The notes under the pieces were generated by a model. It made no database searches. It was not told the origin of the DNA and worked only from the letters and a program-made list of their open reading frames with translations. From IMG/VR virus record IMGVR_UViG_2706794699_000012: 48,572 bases of DNA, one strand, 5' to 3'. The position numbers and the translations under genes were made by a program. Below are positions 21,979-36,814 of the stretch, in pieces. Position 1 is the stretch's first letter; every line of letters begins with the position of its first letter. The stretch comes from a virus (taxonomy: Duplodnaviria; Heunggongvirae; Uroviricota; Caudoviricetes).

Positions 21979-23289
21979 TTAAATCCGAAGTGATGTGACT
22001 CTTCCGGTCGGTTTGACAATAGGGAATTGCTTAACGATGAAATAACCTCCGGCATCATTCGGGTGATCATTGCCAGATTTTTTATCAGGCTCCCCCTTCT
22101 CATCCCAGACCTGTTGCTCCAGAGATTCGGCATATAACGGGCAACGCTTCACATTAACTTTATAGCGACGCTCACCATTGGCATTGCAGAACATTGCATT
22201 CATTGAGTTAACGCGATCTTTTACTGGCGGGTTCGAGCTGTTCACCACAACGTTAAAACCAGCCTGCTTAAGCTGGGCTATATCCGTCGTACTTGCGTTA
22301 CTTGATTTTCTGGAATCCCCGGAAGCATCTGGATAAATATAAATTTCCCTCACTTTCCGGTAATCATTCCCATCATACAGCCAGAAGCGTTCTTTAATGA
22401 TGCGGATCATATCCGGCGTATCGTAGGCATTGATGATTTCAGTTACCGCACATGGAAGCCCCAAACGCAGCACATGGACGATTCCCGCCATCTTTCCAAC
22501 GTTAAAATCCATCCCAATATAAATCGGCTCCCCTGGCTGCTCCACTTCTTCGCAATTATTCAGTTTCCGGTCAAACTGATGGTAAACAGTACCACTTGTC
22601 AGGTTAGTAAACTGTCCTCGAAGATAGGCTTTAATCAGCTCTGGAGGGTATGATTCAAGAAGCGAAGGAATGTAATCTGCTGGCAGGTTCTTTTCATTAT
22701 CGAAAGTAGATGCCTGCACCAGACCATACAGTGAGGCCAGCTCTGTTTTTTCACGCACGGCTTTAACAAACTGCTCGTAGACAAATTTGAATCCTTCCGG
22801 CGTGGTTGTAACGTCAATACCGTTGCGAAGTCCATCAATCTTATAACGCATACGTGCAATTATCTTGCGCCACGCCGTTCTGGCTTTTTCCTTCGGCAAA
22901 ATGTCCAGTTCATCCACCAACGCATTACCAATTTTGAAACCGACGATCGTTTGTGGCTTCTCCATCGATCTGCAGATAGTGGTTCCCCGATACTGGCGTC
23001 CGTAATAAAAGTGAACCTCTTTATTTCCCTCATTAATTTTTACGTTCAATCCCCAGTCAGCAGCAACTTCTTCCACTGTAGGGTAAAAAATATCGCGAAT
23101 TTGGGGATACGTTGGCGCAAAATATCCCTGATTTATACCTGGATGCTCCCAAATCCCCTTGCATATGCCGCCACACCCAACCCATGTTTTGCCCGAGCCA
23201 AAACCAGCAATATAGGCTTTAAATTTATGGGGCATTGAAAGAAATCGCGCCTGAGGCACATTAAGCGTCGGAGAGATCATCTTCATCAC
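21979..23289 (-). CDS. terminase large subunit
   Basis: Walker A-like GFGSGKT near N-terminus; 436 aa; between small terminase and portal. Confidence 0.85.
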   Translation of the reverse strand: MMKMISPTLNVPQARFLSMPHKFKAYIAGFGSGKTWVGCGGICKGIWEHPGINQGYFAPTYPQIRDIFYPTVEEVAADWGLNVKINEGNKEVHFYYGRQYRGTTICRSMEKPQTIVGFKIGNALVDELDILPKEKARTAWRKIIARMRYKIDGLRNGIDVTTTPEGFKFVYEQFVKAVREKTELASLYGLVQASTFDNEKNLPADYIPSLLESYPPELIKAYLRGQFTNLTSGTVYHQFDRKLNNCEEVEQPGEPIYIGMDFNVGKMAGIVHVLRLGLPCAVTEIINAYDTPDMIRIIKERFWLYDGNDYRKVREIYIYPDASGDSRKSSNASTTDIAQLKQAGFNVVVNSSNPPVKDRVNSMNAMFCNANGERRYKVNVKRCPLYAESLEQQVWDEKGEPDKKSGNDHPNDAGGYFIVKQFPIVKPTGRVTSLRI

Positions 23290-24355
23290 TCCTTACTCTG
23301 GCATCAACCACATTAATATTGATCGCCACAGGCTGGGGATGTTCATTATCTTCCACCGTTTCGATCTCTTTGCGCAGCTTCTGGTTTTCCATTCTGCGCC
23401 GTTCAATTTCCAGTTCCCGTAGCCGCTTATCTGCACATAAAGCCCCGCCAGCAGAAAACAAACGCAACAATTCACGCCGGGCGGCAGCCTTATCCTCCAG
23501 CAGGATCTCAACGCCGAATTTTCCGAATTTTGCCCCTGCATATAATTGCCGCGCATCCCCATCAAGCAGAGTGGTATCAGCCATATAAAGCTGTCCCGTT
23601 CCCTCACCGCAGCACTTCGGGCAGTCCGGATTGGGTATGGCGTTATCAACAAAGCCGAGGCCTCCATATTCCGGTTCGGGTTTGCCATCTCTGGAAGCCT
23701 GCGCCGCTGCCTTGTCGAATTCTGCTATATCGCGCCACTGGTAGAGATGATTCTCGCCCCAGCAATAACGGCAGTTAACACGGCGAAATTGTGCAAGCTG
23801 ATTGGGGTCGGCCAGGACAATAGCCATCAACTGACTCACTAGTAAATCCAGGTCTGCGGTATAGCGTTTCTGGTACTGATTGCGGAAGTAGCTGATAGCG
23901 CGAAAAACCCTGGCATTTCTAAGCATACGACTGGCGTTGCTGTTAGCTGTCGCACCTTGCCCCTCATAACCGGCTAGTCGGTACGCCTCTGTCGGCTTTT
24001 TACCCTGAGCAACAAGCATCGCAAACTTAGCCTGCTGGTCAGAAATGCCGAATTCATCGGGACAGAACGAAAATTCCTCCGCGTCGCCCTCATTCAGGCC
24101 CGCATCGAATACTGGCTTTTTTTCCTGAGATTTTTCGTTCCGCTTTTGTGCAGTCTGCGCAGATTTTTTCTGCGCACTTTTTTGCGCAGTTTTGCACATT
24201 TCTGTCTGCGCATTTTTCGGAGTTTTTTTGATGTAACGACGGGCTGTTGCGTAATTCAGTCCCCTTGCTTCACACCATGCCACCGGAGATATACCGGAGC
24301 GGGTGTATTCAGCAATATACTCCTGCTGCAACGCCCCCCAGTCCGGTCTGCTCAT
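23261..24355 (-). CDS. terminase small subunit (DNA-recognition), with low-complexity AQK-rich linker
   Basis: N-terminal HTH-like segment (ISPVAWCEARGLNYATARRYI), then KTAQKSAQKKSAQTAQK, C-terminal coiled coil; overlaps terminase large start. Confidence 0.6.
   Translation of the reverse strand: MSRPDWGALQQEYIAEYTRSGISPVAWCEARGLNYATARRYIKKTPKNAQTEMCKTAQKSAQKKSAQTAQKRNEKSQEKKPVFDAGLNEGDAEEFSFCPDEFGISDQQAKFAMLVAQGKKPTEAYRLAGYEGQGATANSNASRMLRNARVFRAISYFRNQYQKRYTADLDLLVSQLMAIVLADPNQLAQFRRVNCRYCWGENHLYQWRDIAEFDKAAAQASRDGKPEPEYGGLGFVDNAIPNPDCPKCCGEGTGQLYMADTTLLDGDARQLYAGAKFGKFGVEILLEDKAAARRELLRLFSAGGALCADKRLRELEIERRRMENQKLRKEIETVEDNEHPQPVAININVVDARVRSDEDDLSDA
24146..24215. repeat. four palindromic TGCGCA hexamers separated by T-tracts inside the terS 5' region (candidate pac site)
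   Basis: ctgcgca at 24155, ctgcgca at 24170, tgcgcag at 24183, ctgcgca at 24206, each followed by a run of T. Confidence 0.5.
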
Positions 24356-24358
24356 CAG

Positions 24359-24610
24359 TTAGTCCTGATTTTTATCCACCCTGAGTAGTTCGCGCAGAGC
24401 AAAGGCATCCCCTTTTCTGGCAAGCTTAAACAATGCCGCTCGTAACTCGGCTTCACCTTTCGCTCTGCCCTTACGGATGGCCGCATAAAAATCTGTCATT
24501 GCTTCCCGATTTTCTTTCAGTCGGTTCAGATCAACATCCAGAACGTCAGCGATTTGTTGTGCAGTCATCCGGCACGCTGCCAGAGACTCGACTTTCGAAT
24601 ACGGAATCAT
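24359..24610 (-). CDS. small hypothetical protein upstream of terS
   Basis: 83-aa ORF, stop overlaps terS start; start overlaps upstream gene so the true start may be internal. Confidence 0.4.
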   Translation of the reverse strand: MIPYSKVESLAACRMTAQQIADVLDVDLNRLKENREAMTDFYAAIRKGRAKGEAELRAALFKLARKGDAFALRELLRVDKNQD

Positions 24611-25478
24611 TTGTCACCCCCATTGATATGCAGGGTGTCTTCTTCCTGTATTTTTCGTGAAGGATTTTTACTGCAGCGTTGTTCCAGGTGACCTGATGGT
24701 GAATGCGTTTATGACTGGCACCCATAAGTGAGATTTTTACGCACGACGGCGCATACATGACGGAGTAAAAACTTTTAACGTAGGTTCCGGAATCCAGATA
24801 CAGCTCGGTCATTCCGCCGCTGTTTTTCTGCGTCTGTTTCTGCCCTAACTGGACAGCACCGATCGTCATAAACAATTCACCACAGCGACCGAGATTCGTG
24901 TACGTATTCACATCCTCGTTAATGCGCCCCATGAATGAGAACGGTCGATCAACCGAACAGATAAAGCTGTTCATTGCCTTGCGTTTCACCCACGAAGCAT
25001 GGCCGCCATTGTCACCAAGAAAATCCCCGCCCTGCGACATAGCGATGGAAAGAGCAGGTATTGATTCGTAGTACGCAAGCATTTCAGAAAGGATCTCATC
25101 CAGTTTCCTTATCGGGAAATAGGCCTGGTCATAGTTGCGATCCACCCGAAACTGGAACTCGTGATAATCATCATCGAGCTGAATGAAGTATTTACACCCG
25201 ACCAGTTTTGCCTGGTCGAAACAGGCATTACGGGCGTAAAAAATTGAGCGGCGGTCACTAAAATTATCGGCTTCGTCAAAACGACTAGCAATATCGGCTT
25301 TGGAAAATACCAGCACCTGTTCACCAAATTCAGCCATGTACTGATGCCGTGTCTTATCTTCATCATCAACAACGATAAAAATTTTCCCGGTATAGCCAGC
25401 ACGACGCAACGTCCGGTAAGTCAGAACTTTGTCCGGTCGCCCGTGAGTCAGAATAAAGGCGCAAAAATCATCACGCAT
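24546..25478 (-). CDS. hypothetical protein with GT-A-like acidic motifs (VVDDED, LDDDY)
   Basis: ATG at 25478 preceded by GGAGGAGGAA and overlapping the ParB-like stop; motifs ILTHGRPD...IFIVVDDEDK...QLDDDY resemble a nucleotide-sugar transferase fold. Confidence 0.5.
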   Translation of the reverse strand: MRDDFCAFILTHGRPDKVLTYRTLRRAGYTGKIFIVVDDEDKTRHQYMAEFGEQVLVFSKADIASRFDEADNFSDRRSIFYARNACFDQAKLVGCKYFIQLDDDYHEFQFRVDRNYDQAYFPIRKLDEILSEMLAYYESIPALSIAMSQGGDFLGDNGGHASWVKRKAMNSFICSVDRPFSFMGRINEDVNTYTNLGRCGELFMTIGAVQLGQKQTQKNSGGMTELYLDSGTYVKSFYSVMYAPSCVKISLMGASHKRIHHQVTWNNAAVKILHEKYRKKTPCISMGVTNDSVFESRVSGSVPDDCTTNR

Positions 25479-26259
25479 ATTCCTCCTCCCCGCCATGCAT
25501 GATCTCCACCATGCGCTGCGTCATTCGGACAAATCCATTTTCAATAGCCTGCTGATAATCAATGATCACCAGCGCCGACTCCTCGAAAAGGCACTGAATT
25601 TCAGCGGGGGCATGAGCGTAATAGTCCGCAATTCTGCTGAAATTAAACACCGTGTGACGTTCTGCTGCACACAGGAGGAATTTCTCAATATCAGGATCAA
25701 GGGACGCCGAACGTATCCGGCTGATCAGCTCCTGAGTTTTCGTATCGTCGTACAGTTCACTGATATCCGGTTTACCGCCTGACGGCTCATAAACAGGCGT
25801 ATCAATTTTCGTCGTATACGGCTCCTCCTCATTTCCTGTACCGGGCAAAACATCCGTCAACAGTTCATCAATTTCTGCCGGGATGAAGCCTGTCAGGGAG
25901 ACATCAAAATCAGCATTGATTAGGTCCGACAGCTCCATCCGCAACAGATCTTCATCCCAGCCAGCATTCATCGGCAGGCGATTATCTGCCAGGCGGTACG
26001 CCTTTTTCTGCTCATCCGTCAGGCCAGACAGAACAATGACCGGAACAGAATCCATTTTGAGCATTTCAGCCGCCATAACACGACCGTGACCCGCAATAAT
26101 TTCGCCCTTTTCGTCAATCAGCACCGGATTAGTCCAGCCGAATTGCTTAATACTTTCTACCAGTTGTGCCACCTGCTCAGTACTGTGCGTCCTGGCGTTG
26201 TGCGCATACGGTGACAATTCTTGTAATGGGCGATAGACTATCTTTAATTTCTCGCTCAT
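25471..26259 (-). CDS. ParB-like nuclease domain protein
   Basis: N-terminal ParB/Srx-like motif ...PVLIDEKGEIIAGHGRVMAA...; 262 aa. Confidence 0.75.
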   Translation of the reverse strand: MSEKLKIVYRPLQELSPYAHNARTHSTEQVAQLVESIKQFGWTNPVLIDEKGEIIAGHGRVMAAEMLKMDSVPVIVLSGLTDEQKKAYRLADNRLPMNAGWDEDLLRMELSDLINADFDVSLTGFIPAEIDELLTDVLPGTGNEEEPYTTKIDTPVYEPSGGKPDISELYDDTKTQELISRIRSASLDPDIEKFLLCAAERHTVFNFSRIADYYAHAPAEIQCLFEESALVIIDYQQAIENGFVRMTQRMVEIMHGGEEEYA

Positions 26260-26396
26260 ACAGCCTTGCTTTATGAATAAAACGCACCCCAGCAGCCAGT
26301 GCTACTGGGGGCGGAGGTGTTGCTGGTAAAGTTAGGTATTGGATCAATGAGTGAGTCAACATAATATTAAACTCACAATTATAAATCAGCCATATA

Positions 26397-27854
26397 TTAG
26401 GAGCGCCAAAAAAAACCTGAAAACAATATAATAACAGGATAAATTTCAAGGCGACCAAGAATCATAGCTATGCACATTAAATATTTTGCAATGTCATTAA
26501 GCACTCCGAATGACGATGCAGTAGCCCCAAAACCTAATCCCATATTATTAATACATGCAGCCACTGTTGCAAATGATGTAAGAAAATCATATCCCATACC
26601 ATTTAACACCAGTATAAAAAACACCGTGAAGAGAGTATAAAGAAAAAAGAAACTCCATACAGACCTCATTACACGATCTGTAACTATCTTCCCTCCTACA
26701 TTTACACTCAACAACGCTCTGGGATGAGAAAGCTGATTTATCTCGTGTTTGCTTTGTTTGAAAAGTATAAGAAATCGAAGTGACTTAATTCCACCACAGG
26801 TTGAACCTATACATCCCCCAAAGAAACTTGACAACAGCAAAAACACTATCGTGTGCGTGGGCCAGTTTGCATAATCCTGCGTAGCTAAACCATTATCAGT
26901 GAGCATGGAGCTGGCAAGAAAAAACGAATGAATAAAACTTCCATGCAAGTCATACATACCTATATGCCAGACCTGGAAAGAGGTAACAATGATCACCCCT
27001 AAGGCTATTAACAGAAAGAAACGAAGTTCAATATCTCTGATTAAAGGTTTTATCGTTTTTCTGCTAATAACAATATACCAAAGAGTGAAGTTGAAAGCCG
27101 ATAGCAGGGAAAAAGAACCAGCCACCAGCTCAACCAAATAGTTATTAAAATATCCGATACTCTCGCTATGAGTTGAGAAACCACCAAGCGAAACTGTGGA
27201 AATCCCGTGACAAATAGCATCAAACAAAGGCATTCCTGCAAGTCTATAACAGACAATACAAGCAATACCTAATAAAGAATAAGTTATCCACAGTGTCCGT
27301 GACGTATCGGCCAGGCGGGGAGTGAGTTTGTCATCCTTAAATGGCCCCGGCATTTCTGACTGATAAAGCTTTGCACCACCAATACCCAATAATGGCAATA
27401 CTGCAACCGCCAGAACAATAACTCCTAAACCACCTATAAAATTTAACTGTGACCGATAGTACAAATATGCCCGAGGTAATGAACTAACATCATCAATTAC
27501 AGTTGCTCCTGTTGTTGTTATTCCAGAAACCCCTTCAAACAGAGCATCAATGAACGTTAAATTAAGTTCTGAGTCAATCCATAAAGGGAATGCACTAATA
27601 ACAGAAAACAAAATCCAAAACATTACAATTATAATAAACCCATCACGGGTACGTAATTGAATGCCAGATTTCTTAGTTGTATACCACGCTCCGCCACCAA
27701 TGCAAAAAAATATAACGAAAGTTATAAAGAAAACGAACAGGCTTTTTTCTTTATAAAACAATGCTACAACCATTGGTGGCAACATTGAAAGACTATAGAG
27801 CCAAACCAGGAACCCACACATATGAGTAACAACTCTTACATGAGATGTATTCAT
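26397..27854 (-). CDS. trkG: Trk potassium uptake protein TrkG (prophage moron)
   Basis: Multi-pass membrane protein; start MNTSHVRVVTHMCGFLVWLYSL gives 485 aa, matching Rac TrkG as recalled; visibly AT-rich relative to flanking genes. Confidence 0.9.
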   Translation of the reverse strand: MNTSHVRVVTHMCGFLVWLYSLSMLPPMVVALFYKEKSLFVFFITFVIFFCIGGGAWYTTKKSGIQLRTRDGFIIIVMFWILFSVISAFPLWIDSELNLTFIDALFEGVSGITTTGATVIDDVSSLPRAYLYYRSQLNFIGGLGVIVLAVAVLPLLGIGGAKLYQSEMPGPFKDDKLTPRLADTSRTLWITYSLLGIACIVCYRLAGMPLFDAICHGISTVSLGGFSTHSESIGYFNNYLVELVAGSFSLLSAFNFTLWYIVISRKTIKPLIRDIELRFFLLIALGVIIVTSFQVWHIGMYDLHGSFIHSFFLASSMLTDNGLATQDYANWPTHTIVFLLLSSFFGGCIGSTCGGIKSLRFLILFKQSKHEINQLSHPRALLSVNVGGKIVTDRVMRSVWSFFFLYTLFTVFFILVLNGMGYDFLTSFATVAACINNMGLGFGATASSFGVLNDIAKYLMCIAMILGRLEIYPVIILFSGFFWRS

Positions 27855-27991
27855 ATCTAAATATTCTTTCAATTATAACCACCTTGCTGCAATATTATGA
27901 TTATACTGTATAAAATTTAACTCCTCTTAGATCTTACTTCACTGTTCCTTATGAAACAATCATCAAAATGAATCATATTGTAGTTAAGATT

Positions 27992-29416: not shown

Positions 29417-29812
29417 CTAACCTCGCATGTCAAAGCCAGATTTCTGAAAATCTCTGTAGACTTCCGGATTGTTGAAGGCCGGAAATTTGGCTTTATGAGC
29501 TGCGGACTTTATCGCTTCGCAATAGGCTTTATCACCGTTACTGGTAGATATTTTTAACGCCGTGCCATCCTGAGAGAATTCCATATGCAACCTGCATTTT
29601 TTCCCTTTCCAGTTATGCGGCTCATCAAGTTTGGCATTAATTGCAGCTCTGATTCCCCGCGCTTGCGCCCCCCATTCATCCTGATCATCCCAGCGTCCTG
29701 AACTGCAACTACCTGTAGCAGTAGTTTTGTGGCAATCTGAAGGGTGTAAAGGTGTGCATCCCGCAACAAAACCGACCCAAAAAGTCAACATAACGATTTT
29801 CTTTAATCCCAC
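29417..29812 (-). CDS. lipoprotein with TolA domain-III-like C-terminus (paralogue 2)
   Basis: GTG start preceded by GAGGAG; signal peptide + lipobox VAGC; C-terminal ...KKCRLHMEFSQDGTALKISTSNGDKAYCEAIKSAAHKAKFPAFNNPEVYRDFQKSGFDMRG parallels paralogue 1, including the Cys pair. Confidence 0.7.
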   Translation of the reverse strand: MGLKKIVMLTFWVGFVAGCTPLHPSDCHKTTATGSCSSGRWDDQDEWGAQARGIRAAINAKLDEPHNWKGKKCRLHMEFSQDGTALKISTSNGDKAYCEAIKSAAHKAKFPAFNNPEVYRDFQKSGFDMRG

Positions 29813-29962: not shown

Positions 29963-30391
29963 TCAGGGTTTAAAATCCAGCACCCCATTTTGAAATACTT
30001 TATATACTTCCGGCGAAGGGGGGGCAGGTATATCAGCATTCTTTATCGCATTCATCGCTTCACGACATAAATCGAGGTCTCCACTTTCTCTTTTAACCTC
30101 CAGTAGAAGGCCATTCGGGGCCATATGCATTCTCAGTGTACACTCTTTTCCTGAATACTTACTCGCATCCCCGAACTGTTTTTCGATGGCGCTCTTGATT
30201 TGATGGGCATACAGACGGATATCCTCACTAACATCAGAAGTACGTTCAGATGAACTCACATACTGTGTCTCTATTGCTTTATCGGAGTAATATGATGTAC
30301 GGTCATGATAATTTGTCGATACAGCATCAGTGCACCCGATAATAATCCCACTAATAATCAACGTAAGAATTGATGCGCTACGAAAACCCAT
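29963..30391 (-). CDS. lipoprotein with TolA domain-III-like C-terminus (paralogue 1)
   Basis: Signal peptide + lipobox IIGC; C-terminal YAHQIKSAIEKQFGDASKYSGKECTLRMHMAPNGLLLEVKRESGDLDLCREAMNAIKNADIPAPPSPEVYKVFQNGVLDFKP closely resembles the E. coli TolA C-terminus (...TCTLRIKLAPDGMLLDIKPEGGDPALCQAA...KNAPLDFKP, from memory); SD GAGG upstream. Confidence 0.75.
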   Translation of the reverse strand: MGFRSASILTLIISGIIIGCTDAVSTNYHDRTSYYSDKAIETQYVSSSERTSDVSEDIRLYAHQIKSAIEKQFGDASKYSGKECTLRMHMAPNGLLLEVKRESGDLDLCREAMNAIKNADIPAPPSPEVYKVFQNGVLDFKP

Positions 30392-34636: not shown

Positions 34637-35638
34637 TTAGTAATCTGCGTGTTTCGCACTTTTCAGAAATGCTTTCATATTTTCATTAGGTCGCTCAATT
34701 TCGAAGTTACTTCCATATAACTCTTGTAATTTTGGCCATAACTTACTTAATAACCCTCTCCTGCGATAAAATGGATGTATCCAAACGGTAGATAGGTACG
34801 GAGAATTTGCATTTGAATTGTTTATTGTGACCAGCCCAACTAAACATTGTCGATAACCACTATTATCCATTGATTGTATTTCTTCGACGAATGGATACGC
34901 GATTACATCAGTCCAACCATGATCGGTTGTATCCCATTGCATTCCGTCATGACATTCCTTCGACTGATAGCGGCGTAAAGCTACACACGCGAGCTTTTGC
35001 CAATCTGGAGAATTAATTGTGATCTCTTCATCGTATGACGCGCCTATTGGAGCGGGTATTGGTCTGATTAATCCAGCATGGCATTCATCATAGAACTTCA
35101 TGTTTCCCTCAGAAACGTTGTGTACGTTGGGTTGCTCCATGTGTGCGCCATTCAAAAATAGCTCTGATAGTAGTGTATCTACACTGTAATCTTTATTGAT
35201 TATTGTCGGCTTAGAGTTTTTCTTATTAAGGCCGCGAGTAACGATTTTTTGATCAATGTTAACAACATGGAATAATCCGTCGGGGAGGCTAGCGAACCAC
35301 GATGGGGCATCGGACCAGAATAGCATGCCTTTTGTACTTCTTAAGAGTTTAATTAAGTTAATACAAGCTTCTTCACTAGTCTTGCCGTTGATGCGAAGTA
35401 TGTTAGGACTAAAGTAATATTCATCCATATCAGGGAATGCAGCTTCGCAAAACTCCTGTACATAATTTAGCACCTGGATTCTACAGAGATCATCATAGCT
35501 GGTAATAACTAAGGGGGTATCTTCATTACTATTATGATTATCAATAATGCAATCTATAGCGAGACTTACTGCTTTGCGTATCACTTCAGTTGAATCTAAC
35601 GACTCTAAAAATTTTGTCTTTCGTGTGCGAATATCCAT
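34637..35638 (-). CDS. uncharacterised protein B of an AT-rich two-gene accessory operon (possible GNAT-like C-terminus)
   Basis: 333-aa ORF, 15-nt spacing after gene A; AT-rich; C-terminal ...CLVGLVTI...STVWIHPFYRRRGLLSKLWPKLQELYG loosely resembles an acetyltransferase pyrophosphate-binding loop. Confidence 0.7.
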   Translation of the reverse strand: MDIRTRKTKFLESLDSTEVIRKAVSLAIDCIIDNHNSNEDTPLVITSYDDLCRIQVLNYVQEFCEAAFPDMDEYYFSPNILRINGKTSEEACINLIKLLRSTKGMLFWSDAPSWFASLPDGLFHVVNIDQKIVTRGLNKKNSKPTIINKDYSVDTLLSELFLNGAHMEQPNVHNVSEGNMKFYDECHAGLIRPIPAPIGASYDEEITINSPDWQKLACVALRRYQSKECHDGMQWDTTDHGWTDVIAYPFVEEIQSMDNSGYRQCLVGLVTINNSNANSPYLSTVWIHPFYRRRGLLSKLWPKLQELYGSNFEIERPNENMKAFLKSAKHADY

Positions 35639-35653
35639 GTATGACCTGCGCTA

Positions 35654-36676
35654 TTAAAATTCATGAATGAACGGTTTGTCATCTGGTTGCAAAATGGTGG
35701 TTTTATTCGTTGCTACATTTAAACTGTTGTAGAGCATAATTGCCAGGTTCGATGCATTTTCAATCAGCGTTTCAAGATCCTGGTCTGTAATCACTACGAG
35801 GTTCCCTTCTTTATCCTTTCCACCACGATGCACTAAGTGATTTCGATTGAGGGTTGCCAATTCAATAGCTTCTATCGGACAGTCTTTTTGTACTTTTATA
35901 TCGAATGTAGCTTCATAGCGGTCGATTACCTTTTTAGTGCTATGCCAGCTTGCACTGATCAAGTGTTCCTTGATTGACCTGATTAGCTCTCCCCTAATTT
36001 TCTCGATGGGTTCACCCTTGAAAGGCAACGCAGCAATATCTTTGCTTACTTTAAATTCAGTCTTACCTTTTTCTATACAATTGGCTATGTAGACATCATC
36101 TTTCTCTATAGAATTAATGAATAGCTCAACATAAAGCGTTTCCAAAGCTGTAATAACATTCGTGTAGAGCAAACTAAGCAAGTGGTTTTTTTGCTGTTGT
36201 TCAGTTTTATCTTTTGCAAGTTTTTTTATTTTATCGATATTATCAATGAATTTTAAATACGGATTACCGGAAGACGTTACAGCGTCGTAGATATCATCAT
36301 CGTACCAATCATCTATATTATTTGAGTTTCCAGACCAGTCAAAACATTGTGTTTGTAATTCATCTACTAATTCCTCAATATACTCAGATTTAACATATTG
36401 ACCGAAGATGGATTGTAGTTCTTCGCTCGCATCATACGGCCCGCCATATATGTAAGCATAGCCACCTTCTCTACTTTCATACGGACAAGCATTTGCCGGA
36501 TCTTCAAAGTTTTCAAAGAACCAGTTTTTCATTACTTCGAGTTGATCTTTTTTGCTTATGTATTTTAAAGATTTTAGTGGAACTTTCTTTCCATTAACCT
36601 CGAAAACAATTTTCACGATGTAACGCTCCCTTGTATCAATTGCGCAACTATTATACCACAGCGAAATACAGGGCAT
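35654..36676 (-). CDS. uncharacterised protein A of the AT-rich two-gene accessory operon (R-x4-H, HEPN-like motif)
   Basis: ATG at 36676 preceded by AAGGAGG; alternative GTG at 36616 (AGGGAG upstream); track ORF extends to 36745; C-terminal LNRNHLVHRGG motif at residues 301-306 of the track ORF. Confidence 0.7.
   Translation of the reverse strand: MPCISLWYNSCAIDTRERYIVKIVFEVNGKKVPLKSLKYISKKDQLEVMKNWFFENFEDPANACPYESREGGYAYIYGGPYDASEELQSIFGQYVKSEYIEELVDELQTQCFDWSGNSNNIDDWYDDDIYDAVTSSGNPYLKFIDNIDKIKKLAKDKTEQQQKNHLLSLLYTNVITALETLYVELFINSIEKDDVYIANCIEKGKTEFKVSKDIAALPFKGEPIEKIRGELIRSIKEHLISASWHSTKKVIDRYEATFDIKVQKDCPIEAIELATLNRNHLVHRGGKDKEGNLVVITDQDLETLIENASNLAIMLYNSLNVATNKTTILQPDDKPFIHEF
36650..36658 (-). 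promoter_or_regulatory. extended -10 element TGgTATAAT upstream of the alternative GTG start of gene A
   Basis: Plus-strand attata at 36650-36655 and cca at 36656-58 give minus-strand TGgTATAAT; no good -35. Confidence 0.35.
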
Positions 36677-36814
36677 AACCTGCCTCCTTAAACTAACATA
36701 CCATGAGCCAGCAATGTCCGCTATTGGCACAAAGCGGACAACCACGCTAGCTCTCCCCTGTGCCAGAAAAATGTCAATTTACATATGAACTAATGCTCTT
36801 TGATCTAGTAACGT

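Follow-up and report, generated by a model that had tools for sequence, protein, structure and literature searches.

A TAGT-family glycosyltransferase and its overlapping ParB-type partner in E. coli Rac-type prophages: a candidate two-component DNA glycosylation system

Introduction

In the current view, a phage that glycosylates its DNA has to produce hydroxymethyl- or hydroxy-pyrimidines beforehand, and these are then decorated. To our knowledge, the acceptor for every characterised DNA-directed member of the TAGT (TET-associated glycosyltransferase) family must be either a base that bears a hydroxyl or a sugar already in place, and we know of no member that glycosylates an ordinary base directly. 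The founding TAGT paper is that of Iyer et al. in Nucleic Acids Res in 2013; in our literature search, the full phrase appeared only in papers on T-even phages. Those TAGT-family enzymes that have been characterised modify bases of DNA, one instance being the second hmC glucosylation in T6-like phages (PMC13390438), and phage GT-A enzymes have been described with 5hmC as substrate and with a resemblance to the base-J glucosyltransferase (bioRxiv 10.1101/2023.12.21.572611).

The closest described systems are phage clusters that combine TET/JBP (5mYOX) and TAGT/GT-A genes (Burke et al. 2021, PMC8256090; Pyle et al., bioRxiv 10.1101/2023.12.21.572611). They share with the E. coli gene pair analysed here the Pfam TAGT family, the GT-A fold and the R...DDD...ED motifs; they are likewise phage-encoded, act post-replicatively (which for the E. 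coli pair is our proposal) and often lie near ParB-like and terminase genes. In these clusters, however, 5hmC or 5hmU is made first, either by a C5-methyltransferase together with a dioxygenase or by a dioxygenase alone, and the glycosyltransferase then uses the hydroxyl. In contrast, the E. coli pair is accompanied by neither a dioxygenase nor a hydroxymethylase, and neither is conserved with it; the apparently obligatory partner of the transferase is a ParB-type protein with a C-terminal domain (CTD) of its own.

The T2/T6 beta-glucosyl-HMC alpha-glucosyltransferase, a TAGT-family member according to PMC13390438, has the same Pfam family and PHROG as the E. coli transferase and adds sugar to phage DNA after replication, whereas its acceptor is glucosyl-hmC derived from pre-replicatively incorporated hmC and no ParB-CTD partner is known for it. 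It was too distant to be picked up by tblastn at 1e-10, and the label of PHROG 842, whose source is the T2/T6 enzyme, should not be transferred to the E. coli transferase. GREB1, an animal TAGT-domain protein, and the trypanosome base-J glucosyltransferase (JGT) are distant members of the same GT-A clade; unlike the E. coli transferase, neither has a ParB-CTD partner, and GREB1 O-GlcNAcylates a protein (PMC7968844) while JGT glucosylates 5hmU made by JBP.

For the partner, the precedent is provided by the ParB-dependent thymine dioxygenases, compared here through their published description (O'Toole et al., PNAS 2026, PMC13229309). Like YnaK, the partner studied here, these ParBs consist of a nucleotide-binding domain (NBD), a short helical segment, a disordered linker and a CTD, and have no DNA-binding domain; their genes adjoin that of a DNA-modifying enzyme, and N and H are reported in place of the canonical catalytic Gln and Glu. 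In contrast to YnaK, which is adjoined by a glycosyltransferase gene, their client is a 2OG/Fe(II) dioxygenase, and their linker is described as non-conserved whereas that of YnaK carries an invariant motif. ParB176 activates 5mYOX176 only on dsDNA, and mutations of its NTP-binding residues did not abolish activation (PMC13229309), so that the clamp idea is uncertain even for this precedent.

Results

Layout of the locus and the gene junction

We analysed IMG/VR record IMGVR_UViG_2706794699_000012, a DNA stretch of 48,572 nucleotides referred to below as the window. The element that hosts the pair is an E. coli Rac-type prophage, and the pair sits just 5' of the DNA-packaging genes, with the following layout.

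25471..26259, minus strand: full-length ynaK, 262 aa, ParB/Srx-type partner (putative adaptor) of the glycosyltransferase (ORF, Pfam, PHROG, PGAP, Foldseek)
24546..25478, minus strand: TAGT-family GT-A glycosyltransferase, 310 aa (Pfam, PHROG, AF2, Foldseek)
25471..25489, minus strand: gene junction, SD-like GGAGGAGGAA at 25480-25489 and ATGCGTGA at 25471-25478 (sequence reading)
24359..24568, minus strand: 69-aa ORF between the transferase gene and terS (PGAP CDS; PHROG 309 'terminase small subunit', 8.3e-23)
21979..24355, minus strand: packaging genes terS (23261-24355) and terL (21979-23289), directly 3' (Pfam Terminase_2, Terminase_6N, Terminase_6C)
26287..26310, minus strand: terminator-like hairpin, a 10-bp stem followed by a T-run, between a trkG moron and ynaK

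An earlier note, made from the letters of the DNA alone, had described a ParB-like stop codon overlapping the next ATG with an SD upstream, which is borne out on the minus strand: ATGCGTGA holds both the transferase ATG (25478) and the TGA stop of ynaK, an overlap of 8 nt. The start at ATG 25478, and not at the upstream ATG 25496, is the one on which PGAP and 29 homologues concur. The geometry of the overlap suggests that ynaK and the transferase gene may be translationally coupled. Since we found no convincing promoter between the hairpin and ynaK, expression of the pair probably needs antiterminated late transcription.

On the other side of the pair, the 69-aa ORF overlaps the 3' end of the transferase gene by 23 nt and has an 85-aa counterpart in enterobacterial relatives only; it probably belongs to the packaging module, not to the ynaK-TAGT pair. 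Similarly, terS and terL are context of the pair and not conserved partners. The trkG moron occupies the same lysis-to-packaging slot as the pair.

The 310-aa protein is a TAGT-family GT-A transferase

The transferase matches Pfam PF20691 (TAGT) with 118.9 bits against a cut-off of 27.5 bits (3.7e-34), the match running over aa 8-222 and profile positions 4-205 of 205, and it matches PHROG 842 at 7.5e-104. In the AF2 model, pLDDT exceeds 90 over aa 1-150, while the C-terminal half is poorly modelled with low confidence. Foldseek retrieved GT-A folds from the PDB, namely SpsA 1qg8 (3.6e-5), WrtF, K4CP, glycogenin and SunS, and phage TAGT proteins from BFVD (4.5e-20); the glycogenin matches reflect the generic GT-A fold only. 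A PDB sequence search with the transferase profile gave no match at E up to 1. The nucleotide-sugar transferase fold that the earlier note had suspected is supported by both family and predicted structure, and the structure prediction it had put forward as a check yields a GT-A fold and not an unrelated one. Its remark that the function is not evident from sequence is understated, because the TAGT family is recognised at once. PGAP names the protein 'GREB1-related protein', a name that says nothing on its substrate.

In an alignment of 30 homologues (alignment A1), R14, DDD102-104, NED187-189 and HH260-261 are invariant. THGRPD (aa 11-16), VVDDED (36-41) and LDDDY (101-105), whose spacing had been noticed before, are all present and coincide with invariant columns. 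The acidic triplet is encoded here:

25167..25175, minus strand: codons for D102-D103-D104, predicted DxD-type metal and nucleotide-sugar binding motif (invariant in alignment A1)

Phage GT-A DNA glycosyltransferases have been described with an R...DDD...ED motif set (bioRxiv 10.1101/2023.12.21.572611), and D102-D104 are the counterpart of its 'DDD'. The full R...DDD...ED[Y/F] pattern is found with a slight deviation at its last position, where Val follows E188-D189 and the invariant Y193 lies three residues further on. Neither protein of the pair matches Pfam families beyond TAGT and ParB_N, and PADLOC gives no defence-system match for the transferase.

YnaK carries a ParB-type NTPase module

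The ParB fold suspected for the partner is supported by Pfam and Foldseek alike. YnaK matches Pfam ParB_N (PF02195) at 8.7e-7 (29.3 bits, cut-off 26.3 bits) and PHROG 620 at 1.7e-90; Foldseek finds ParB, Noc and KorB folds (1.6e-6 to 1e-5) as well as PadC and Srx, and a HMMER profile of YnaK finds Noc and ParB structures in the PDB at 2e-5. The AF2 model comprises an NBD (aa 1-95, pLDDT 80-90 over 10-95), helices at 103-134, a segment with pLDDT <50 (aa 136-170) and a helical CTD (171-255) of low confidence. PGAP lists the gene as 'ynaK: ParB/Srx family N-terminal domain-containing protein', and our literature search found nothing on the function of ynaK.

25855..26259, minus strand: ynaK aa 1-135, ParB NTPase-type N-domain and short helical segment (alignment A2, HMMER against Noc/ParB, AF2)

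Invariant residues of this domain in alignment A2 include N21, S36, G41-W-T-N-P45, A56-G-x-G-R60 and Y88-R-x-A-D-N93. Aligned with Noc, YnaK has N21 and H58 in place of the canonical Gln and Glu, while R23, G41, R60 and N93 equal the Noc residues and S36 stands opposite Thr; by our own mapping, R23, S36, G41, R60 and N93 would be the ParB NTP-binding positions. YnaK resembles ParABS ParB, Noc and KorB in its N-terminal fold and in most NTP-contacting residues. It differs from them in that the canonical GERR box reads GHGR (H58, G59) and that the HTH parS-binding domain is missing: no HTH or other DNA-binding domain was detected by Pfam or in the AF2 model. A partition function was considered and rejected, as YnaK has no HTH and no ParA is found in the PGAP annotation, which covers most of the window (3000-47900). 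YnaK is not a partition protein, and the phage-record label 'chromosome (plasmid) partitioning protein' is misleading.

ParB-domain phage DNA methyltransferases, which modify DNA, often lie near packaging genes. YnaK aa 3-141 align with positions 31-171 (of 633) of PHROG 498 'DNA methyltransferase' at 6.1e-51, and aa 10-144 with positions 13-151 (of 436) of PADLOC MTase_II at 1.5e-38, indicative of a closely related N-terminal module. In those enzymes one polypeptide carries both the ParB module and the catalytic domain, which transfers a methyl group, whereas in YnaK the module is fused to the CTD and the predicted sugar transferase is a separate, overlapping gene. We found no Pfam match for a methyltransferase domain in YnaK, and the PHROG 498 and MTase_II matches end before such a domain. 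The 'nuclease' label that had been attached to the partner is unsupported: the N-domain of YnaK retains most residues assigned to NTP binding in ParB, and phage DNA methyltransferases carry this very module as a fusion. Taken as statements on function, 'partitioning protein', 'beta-glucosyl-HMC-alpha-glucosyltransferase', 'GREB1-related' and 'ParB-like nuclease' are all misleading.

A linker motif and a CTD define the partner

Two further elements follow the N-domain.

25783..25818, minus strand: ynaK aa 148-159 (YTTKIDTPVYEP), conserved linear motif in the predicted disordered linker (aa 136-170)
25495..25767, minus strand: ynaK aa 165-255, uncharacterised CTD (CTD HMM; invariant residues)

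Among 73 partners from bacteria, archaea and viruses, the linker motif follows the consensus Y-[TS]-x-K-[IV]-x-x-P-x-Y-x-P, with Y148 conserved in 98% and P155 and Y157 in 100%; Thr149 is not conserved, being Ser or Ala in some partners. The CTD, which matches no Pfam or NCBIfam model, has L195, R201, A211, Y214, E226 and D234 as invariant residues. Stand-alone proteins of ~130 aa that consist of this domain are abundant as well, again followed by a TAGT gene, and the best 120 CTD matches are all stand-alone proteins. In this TAGT subfamily the CTD is the universal element of the partner. No convincing natural fusion of partner and transferase was found; longer E. coli 'homologues' were rejected as fusions, as they carry tail-fibre, Lom or terminase domains and resemble products of deletion or misassembly, similar to the ynaK-ydaY fusion of K-12.

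The pair is conserved as a two-gene module

The diversity of the pair was surveyed by a species-dereplicated genome scan, a scan of viral_contigs with A1 having yielded nearly only near-identical E. coli prophages and being uninformative in this respect. With the CTD HMM, a CTD-bearing gene was found directly upstream of TAGT in 64 of 66 species-level loci from many bacterial phyla and archaeal MAGs. The two genes overlap at 61 of these 64 junctions, by 11 nt in 31, by 8 nt in 17 and by 4 nt in 5, and such an overlap across many phyla means that the arrangement is not chance. The functional link that the earlier note had proposed is supported by this adjacency and overlap. Among 59 diverse loci, only TAGT and the CTD partner are universal and no third gene is conserved; the pair is a mobile two-gene module.

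The TAGT proteins keep 40-60% identity across phyla and into archaeal viruses. Clustering at 90% identity gives at least 8000 clusters for the transferase and at least 5400 for the CTD. The subfamily is found in viruses of Proteobacteria, Bacteroidota, Firmicutes, CPR bacteria and haloarchaea, and the pair is also present in phage isolates, including 190-kb Vibrio phages and halovirus HHTV-2. Purifying selection on the pair is strong, with pN of 0.13-0.40 against a saturated pS of 0.73-0.85; the sole measurable dN/dS, for ynaK, is 0.11.

The context is DNA-centred and lacks an acceptor pathway

The genomic context of the pair is always DNA-centred, with a terminase downstream or with replication and methyltransferase genes around it. 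The terL cluster is the third most frequent neighbour (26 of 59 loci), and the neighbouring terminases belong to at least four unrelated types (Terminase_2+6N, Terminase_3, GpA, Terminase_4+TerL_ATPase). In some other phages the pair lies several kb from any terminase. The stand-alone-CTD version is set among replication genes, with SSB, ERF, helicase, primase and a Dam-type or N6/N4 methyltransferase around it and no terminase nearby.

We then asked what could supply a sugar acceptor. In this prophage we found no TET/JBP dioxygenase, thymidylate-synthase-type hydroxymethylase or C5-methyltransferase. A hidden dioxygenase among the two unannotated mid-sized genes at 34637-35638 and 35654-36745 was considered and rejected, as they gave only sub-threshold GNAT and HEPN/RES-NTD1 matches and no TET_JBP, and neither has an NCBIfam or PADLOC match. 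The 14 neighbourhoods for which Pfam annotation had been precomputed showed neither a hydroxylase nor a hydroxymethylase, although very divergent dioxygenases could escape Pfam, and no recurrent dioxygenase or hydroxymethyl-pyrimidine synthesis family appeared among the 59 diverse loci. C5-methyltransferases occur in 8 of the 59.

Discussion

We propose, with a probability of about 45%, that the pair is a late-expressed, self-contained two-component system for post-replicative DNA glycosylation, with YnaK directing the transferase to dsDNA or activating it there. The observed basis of this reading is family and fold, intact catalytic motifs, purifying selection, near-universal adjacency and overlap, and the lack of a conserved third gene. 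From it we infer that the two proteins interact physically, that DNA is the substrate, that expression is late and that the pair is protective. The 310-aa protein would be the catalytic subunit, a metal-dependent GT-A enzyme taking its sugar from a host nucleotide-sugar. YnaK would be its obligatory partner, whose CTD and linker motif may bind and possibly complete the transferase and whose ParB-type NTPase N-domain may tether or activate the complex on dsDNA, as ParB176 does with the phage thymine dioxygenase; the same ParB module presumably acts likewise in the phage DNA methyltransferases that carry it. With its genes expressed together with the late operon, the system could modify phage DNA before or during packaging, and the likely benefit would be that incoming phage DNA is shielded from host nucleases.

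Since no hydroxymethyl-pyrimidine pathway is present, the sugar would have to be attached straight to a base, either canonical or methylated by the host, or to some other position of the DNA. That the YnaK CTD and TAGT together perform such hydroxylase-independent glycosylation of dsDNA, with the CTD giving acceptor recognition or part of the active site, we regard as a possible but doubtful extension of the proposal. The invariant Tyr, Arg, Glu and Asp residues of the CTD count against a DNA substrate.

The same missing acceptor pathway favours a protein substrate, an explanation we consider unlikely. Here the transferase would O-glycosylate its partner, for example at Tyr148 or Tyr157 in a glycogenin-like manner, or another protein; once modified, the ParB-like protein would exert its effect on DNA or packaging. 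GREB1, a TAGT-domain relative, does modify a protein in this way (PMC7968844); the YnaK-type partner is the only universally co-conserved protein and hence the only candidate protein acceptor in every lineage; and the linker tyrosines are 98-100% invariant within a predicted disordered segment. However, the neighbouring Thr149 is variable, the invariant aromatic and proline residues of the linker are equally typical of a docking motif, and the glycogenin matches, being matches to the generic fold, lend no support to self-glycosylation. The ParB module common to DNA methyltransferases and the DNA-centred contexts likewise indicate DNA rather than protein. A further alternative is a packaging accessory, in which the ParB-like protein recognises or nicks DNA at or near pac/cos for the terminase and the transferase is secondary or structural. 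Nuclease activity has been reported for some ParB/Srx proteins, the pair lies immediately 5' of terS/terL in E. coli and many other phages, and terL is a common neighbour. Yet the pair accompanies at least four unrelated terminase systems and elsewhere lies away from the terminase or amid replication genes, identity of 40-60% across phyla would be surprising in a packaging factor that is sequence-specific, and the intact catalytic motifs of the transferase would be left unexplained. We hold a packaging accessory to be improbable; of the two options offered by the earlier note, DNA modification better fits family and context, whereas a dedicated role in pac recognition or packaging is unlikely in view of the variety of terminases and the replication setting of the stand-alone-CTD version.

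A role in the lysogen, where the prophage transferase would modify foreign DNA, a host component or an envelope precursor and so block superinfection, is highly improbable in our estimate. Prophage glycosyltransferases acting against invading phages are an idea raised by Pyle et al. (bioRxiv 10.1101/2023.12.21.572611), and the trkG moron shares the slot of the pair. Against this, the pair lies inside the late transcription unit, 3' of the terminator-like hairpin, and lacks a convincing promoter of its own; phage isolates outside a prophage setting carry it too; PADLOC gives no defence-system match for the transferase; and TAGT and ParB_N are the only Pfam matches of the two proteins. Hardly credible at all is a decayed, functionless remnant of a ParB-dioxygenase-glycosyltransferase cluster that has lost its dioxygenase. 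ParB, 5mYOX, glycosyltransferase and terminase genes do often co-occur in phage contigs, and many E. coli copies of the pair are deletion fusions or fragments, but the form conserved across phyla has two genes and not three, the catalytic residues are invariant under strong purifying selection, and the subfamily numbers thousands of clusters; the conservation data contradict this explanation.

The real puzzle is that a large, conserved TAGT subfamily has no hydroxylase to create its sugar acceptor and is instead paired with an undescribed ~110-aa domain, usually fused to a ParB NTPase module; the earlier note had overlooked both the missing hydroxylase and this C-terminal domain. If DNA is glycosylated as we propose, this would reveal new chemistry and, in temperate phages, a new way to counter restriction, and ParB-like activation of DNA-modifying enzymes would extend from dioxygenases to glycosyltransferases. 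Should the glycosylation be hydroxylase-independent, it would constitute a previously undescribed class of DNA modification in thousands of bacterial and archaeal phages and in ordinary E. coli prophages; if the partner protein is glycosylated, a new regulatory mechanism would emerge.

The module resides in Rac-type prophages, and 780 of 5426 complete E. coli genomes cover at least 80% of a 4.9-kb stretch around it, which puts the question within reach of standard E. coli genetics and nucleoside mass spectrometry. K-12 Rac itself, as the earlier note had recognised, keeps a remnant only: an 87-aa N-terminal ynaK fragment joined to ydaY by a deletion, with the transferase, terminase and head genes missing.

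The ynaK-transferase locus

The window is a Rac-type lambdoid prophage of E. coli, and several E. coli chromosomes are 100% identical to it over a 4.9-kb stretch around the pair formed by ynaK and the transferase gene. An annotated E. coli copy runs from intR, xisR, recET, kilR, sieB and a Q-like antiterminator through the essD/rrrD/rzpD lysis genes and trkG to the head and tail genes. The features around the pair are as follows:

26287-26310, minus strand: strong terminator-like hairpin after trkG
25471-26259, minus strand: full-length ynaK, a 262-aa ORF
25480-25489, minus strand: GGAGGAGGAA, at the ynaK/transferase junction
Gene junction, minus strand: ATGCGTGA, common to both genes; the ynaK TGA stop overlaps the transferase start by 8 nt
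25478 (ATG) to 24546 (stop), minus strand: transferase gene, 310 aa
Downstream of the transferase gene, minus strand: 69-aa ORF, terS and terL

The sequence bears out what the earlier note had claimed for this arrangement: the stop of the ParB-like gene overlaps the ATG of the next gene, the 310-aa product contains the quoted motifs (THGRPD, VVDDED and LDDDY), and packaging genes lie downstream. The two genes are probably translationally coupled. An alternative transferase ATG at 25496 is unused by PGAP and unsupported by 29 homologues, which start with MRDDFC. The remark that K-12 Rac retains only remnants at this position also holds; what it keeps is an 87-aa piece from the N-terminus of ynaK, which a deletion has joined to the tail-region gene ydaY. 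Intact ynaK and the transferase gene are both missing from E. coli K-12.

No convincing promoter was found ahead of ynaK. Together with the hairpin after trkG, this suggests that the pair is probably carried on an antiterminated late transcript with the packaging genes. The trkG potassium-transporter moron and its hairpin (26287-27872, minus strand) lie between the lysis genes and ynaK, so that the late operon is interrupted just before ynaK.

At 310 aa, the E. coli transferase carries ~20 C-terminal residues that nearly all homologues (about 285-290 aa) lack (window 24546-24610, minus strand). This extension is unconserved and reaches 23 nt into the following ORF, which suggests a recent stop-codon shift. 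In strain EC2 (L001 23003-23260, NZ_CP058571), the PGAP entry for ynaK is an incomplete pseudogene despite near-identity to the window (9046 versus 9051 bits), and many E. coli database 'homologues' of both genes are fused to tail-fibre, Lom or terminase fragments, which shows that the module is often decayed in cryptic Rac copies.

The 310-aa protein belongs to the TAGT family

Sequence, fold and motifs all place the transferase clearly within the TET-associated glycosyltransferase (TAGT) family. It scored 118.9 bits against Pfam PF20691 (cut-off 27.5 bits) and matched PHROG 842 at 7.5e-104; PGAP names it 'GREB1-related protein'. The AlphaFold2 model was confident for residues 1-150 and poor for the remainder; like that of YnaK, it was built on a shallow alignment (30 sequences at at least 55% identity), and the models are unreliable for the C-terminal half of the transferase and for the C-terminal domain (CTD, ~aa 165-255) of YnaK. 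The transferase model matched the GT-A glycosyltransferases SpsA, WrtF, chondroitin polymerase, glycogenin, SunS and COLGALT1 in the PDB, and phage TAGT-domain proteins in BFVD (E 4.5e-20). These matches confirm the nucleotide-sugar transferase fold proposed from the sequence. An alignment of 30 homologues (59-82% identity) yielded R14, D38, D41, D68-E-x-D-N72, D102-D-D-Y105, Q149, N187-E-D189 and H260-H261 as invariant, and these include the R...DDD...ED set of phage GT-A DNA glycosyltransferases (Pyle et al., bioRxiv 10.1101/2023.12.21.572611). The transferase departs from the family, however, in the very context that gave the family its name, the association with TET.

YnaK combines a ParB-like module with a C-terminal domain

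YnaK is a member of the ParB/Srx superfamily and is not a partition ParB. Its match to Pfam ParB_N lies barely above threshold, a profile search of the PDB retrieved Noc and ParB, and its model matches the CTPase folds of ParB, Noc, KorB and PadC. In the alignment to Noc, N21 and H58 hold the canonical Gln and Glu positions and GERR becomes GHGR; the same Gln/Glu substitutions have been reported in dioxygenase-associated phage ParBs. R23, G41, R60 and N93 are the same as in Noc and S36 stands opposite Thr, and by our own mapping these would be the ParB NTP-binding positions. We found no support for the earlier label of 'nuclease'. The ParB module of YnaK is the same as that found in fusion with phage DNA methyltransferases (PHROG 498, 6e-51; PADLOC MTase_II, 1.5e-38). 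Behind the N-domain, AlphaFold2 placed a short helical segment (aa 103-134), a predicted disordered linker (136-170) and the helical CTD. Neither Pfam nor NCBIfam has a model that covers the C-terminal 120 residues.

Conservation and mobility of the two-gene module

Each protein has homologues in thousands of 90%-identity clusters, and in successively more distant transferases a ParB-like gene always lies directly upstream with an overlapping junction. A scan with one genome per species collected 80 loci at 40-60% transferase identity, from Proteobacteria, Bacteroidota, Firmicutes, Chlorobi, Desulfobacterota, Verrucomicrobia, Acidobacteria, Actinobacteria, CPR bacteria and archaeal MAGs. Genes were called by a crude longest-ORF method, and partners were sought with two HMMs, one per YnaK half, in those 66 loci where at least 900 nt of upstream sequence was available. 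The adjacent upstream ORF matched the C-terminal-half HMM in 64 of these 66, and the N-domain HMM in only 51, ParB-like motifs still being visible by eye in the partners that the latter missed. The partner-TAGT junction overlapped in 61 of 64 cases (11 nt in 31, 8 nt in 17, 4 nt in 5). The pair also occurs in halovirus HHTV-2 (genes 21/22), in Lactobacillus phage phi jlb1 (genes 024/025, directly ahead of terS/terL), and in L. delbrueckii and Nocardia phages. The surrounding backbones vary: Terminase_2 with Terminase_3, Terminase_2 with Terminase_6N, lambda GpA-type, Terminase_4 with TerL_ATPase, or no nearby terminase.

Both genes are under strong purifying selection. Compared with the Pantoea, Superficieibacter, Serratia, Thiotrichales and Frischella copies, pN was 0.13-0.40 with synonymous sites saturated (pS 0.73-0.85), and the sole measurable dN/dS was 0.11 (ynaK versus the Serratia locus).

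In one metagenomic phage (L009 17837-20316; L010 8659-11138) the ParB-TAGT pair precedes a Terminase_4/TerL_ATPase module, and four consecutive GT2-family glycosyltransferase genes lie downstream of the capsid gene amid unannotated ORFs. This run may serve virion or further glycan modification.

The CTD is the real partner of the transferase

Some partners are only 112-146 aa long and consist of the CTD and the preceding linker motif (aa 148-159, Y-[TS]-x-K-[IV]-x-x-P-x-Y-x-P), without a ParB domain; in 190-kb Vibrio phages, the gene ahead of the transferase encodes a 139-aa protein with a CTD-profile match of 1.3e-45. A search with the CTD profile alone returned 5448 proteins, and the best 120 of these were all stand-alone, about 125-190 aa (most <150) and without a Pfam domain. 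Where stand-alone CTD genes lie on long contigs, a TAGT gene immediately follows, and the surroundings hold SSB, ERF, helicase, primase, and Dam-type and SNF2-N6/N4 methyltransferase genes, not terminase.

In 73 partners drawn from bacteria, archaea and viruses, the linker residue Y148 was conserved in 98% and linker residues P155 and Y157 in 100%, as were L195, R201, A211, Y214, E226 and D234 of the CTD. That polar residues are among the invariant ones suggests a role in binding a ligand or in catalysis rather than simple dimerisation.

In the 190-kb Vibrio phages (pv27, L174 5887-6888), the order is a stand-alone CTD protein, a TAGT with a ~37-aa N-terminal extension and a large helicase, which places the module in a replication-gene block, not beside packaging genes.

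Search for a third component

Clustering of all called genes in 59 diverse loci, each 9 kb or longer, left the transferase and its partner as the only universal families. A terL family came next (26 loci), and several terS families, SSB, and DnaB- and DnaC-like genes were among the others. A C5-cytosine methyltransferase lay near the pair in 8 of the 59 loci and an SNF2 helicase fused to an N6/N4 methyltransferase in 7. When 150 representative mid-sized flanking genes were scanned in bulk against Pfam, no recurrent dioxygenase or thymidylate-synthase-like family emerged, and TET_JBP was found in none of 14 neighbourhoods with precomputed Pfam annotation, a search that would miss genes >10 kb away or very divergent dioxygenases.

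In Bacteroidales-type phages and others (L146 2491-4194; L142 858-3059; L178 4442-6607), these DNA methyltransferase genes are repeatedly found upstream of the pair. They are not universal, but their presence makes methylated DNA a possible substrate for some TAGTs.

The window's only unannotated mid-sized genes gave weak GNAT and HEPN/RES-NTD1 matches:

34637-35638 and 35654-36745, minus strand: hypothetical genes of 333 and 363 aa, next to each other and flanked by the replication genes and the nin-like region

Their Pfam matches are sub-threshold (GNAT, 9e-4; HEPN/RES N-terminal domain, 2e-4), with no NCBIfam or PADLOC match, and the two may make up an accessory or defence-type moron.

Proposed function and alternatives

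We tentatively read the pair, with a rough probability of 0.45, as a two-component post-replicative DNA glycosyltransferase. DNA is the proposed target because characterised TAGT-family enzymes modify DNA bases (PMC13390438; bioRxiv 10.1101/2023.12.21.572611), the ParB module of YnaK is shared with phage DNA methyltransferases, and a phage ParB-like protein of YnaK's domain layout activates a neighbouring DNA-modifying enzyme specifically on dsDNA (PMC13229309). Moreover, whatever accepts the sugar has to occur across all hosts, E. coli and haloarchaea alike, which narrows the choice to DNA and the co-conserved partner itself. Such dioxygenase-activating ParBs resemble YnaK in architecture, but their client enzyme differs. 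Docking onto the transferase, and possibly completing it, would fall to the CTD and linker motif; the ParB module, where present, could tether or activate it on duplex DNA; and late expression would allow DNA to be modified before packaging and so protected in the next host. Complex formation, expression timing and substrate are what we infer for the pair. A difficulty for DNA glycosylation is that, without a hydroxymethyl base, the sugar would have to be placed on an ordinary base or elsewhere on the DNA; we know of no precedent for either in the TAGT family.

Glycosylation of the partner, or of another protein, has a precedent in GREB1 (PMC7968844) and would suit the invariant tyrosines in the disordered segment of YnaK; we regard it as unlikely. 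The varied terminase types, and the contexts without terminase, make a packaging accessory improbable. A lysogen defence function is less likely still, given that the pair sits in the late operon and occurs in phage isolates outside a prophage setting. That the pair is a decayed remnant is contradicted by its conservation and deserves hardly any weight.

Pyle et al. (bioRxiv 10.1101/2023.12.21.572611) found ~65% of phage GT contigs without a 5mYOX (TET/JBP-type dioxygenase) or ThyS neighbour, noted ParB-like and terminase genes nearby, and left these GTs unassigned. Our search found no paper on the CTD, its obligatory pairing with TAGT or its function; Iyer et al. 2013, outside that search, may mention a ParB-TAGT linkage. 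The family formed by TAGT and its partner is very large.

Upstream of the lysis cassette, the window also carries two ORFs with a TolA C-terminal domain (29417-29812, minus strand, 1.3e-14; 29963-30391, minus strand, 2.4e-23), one of which is annotated as a tolA fragment in strain EC2. They might interfere with Tol-dependent entry of colicins or filamentous phages.
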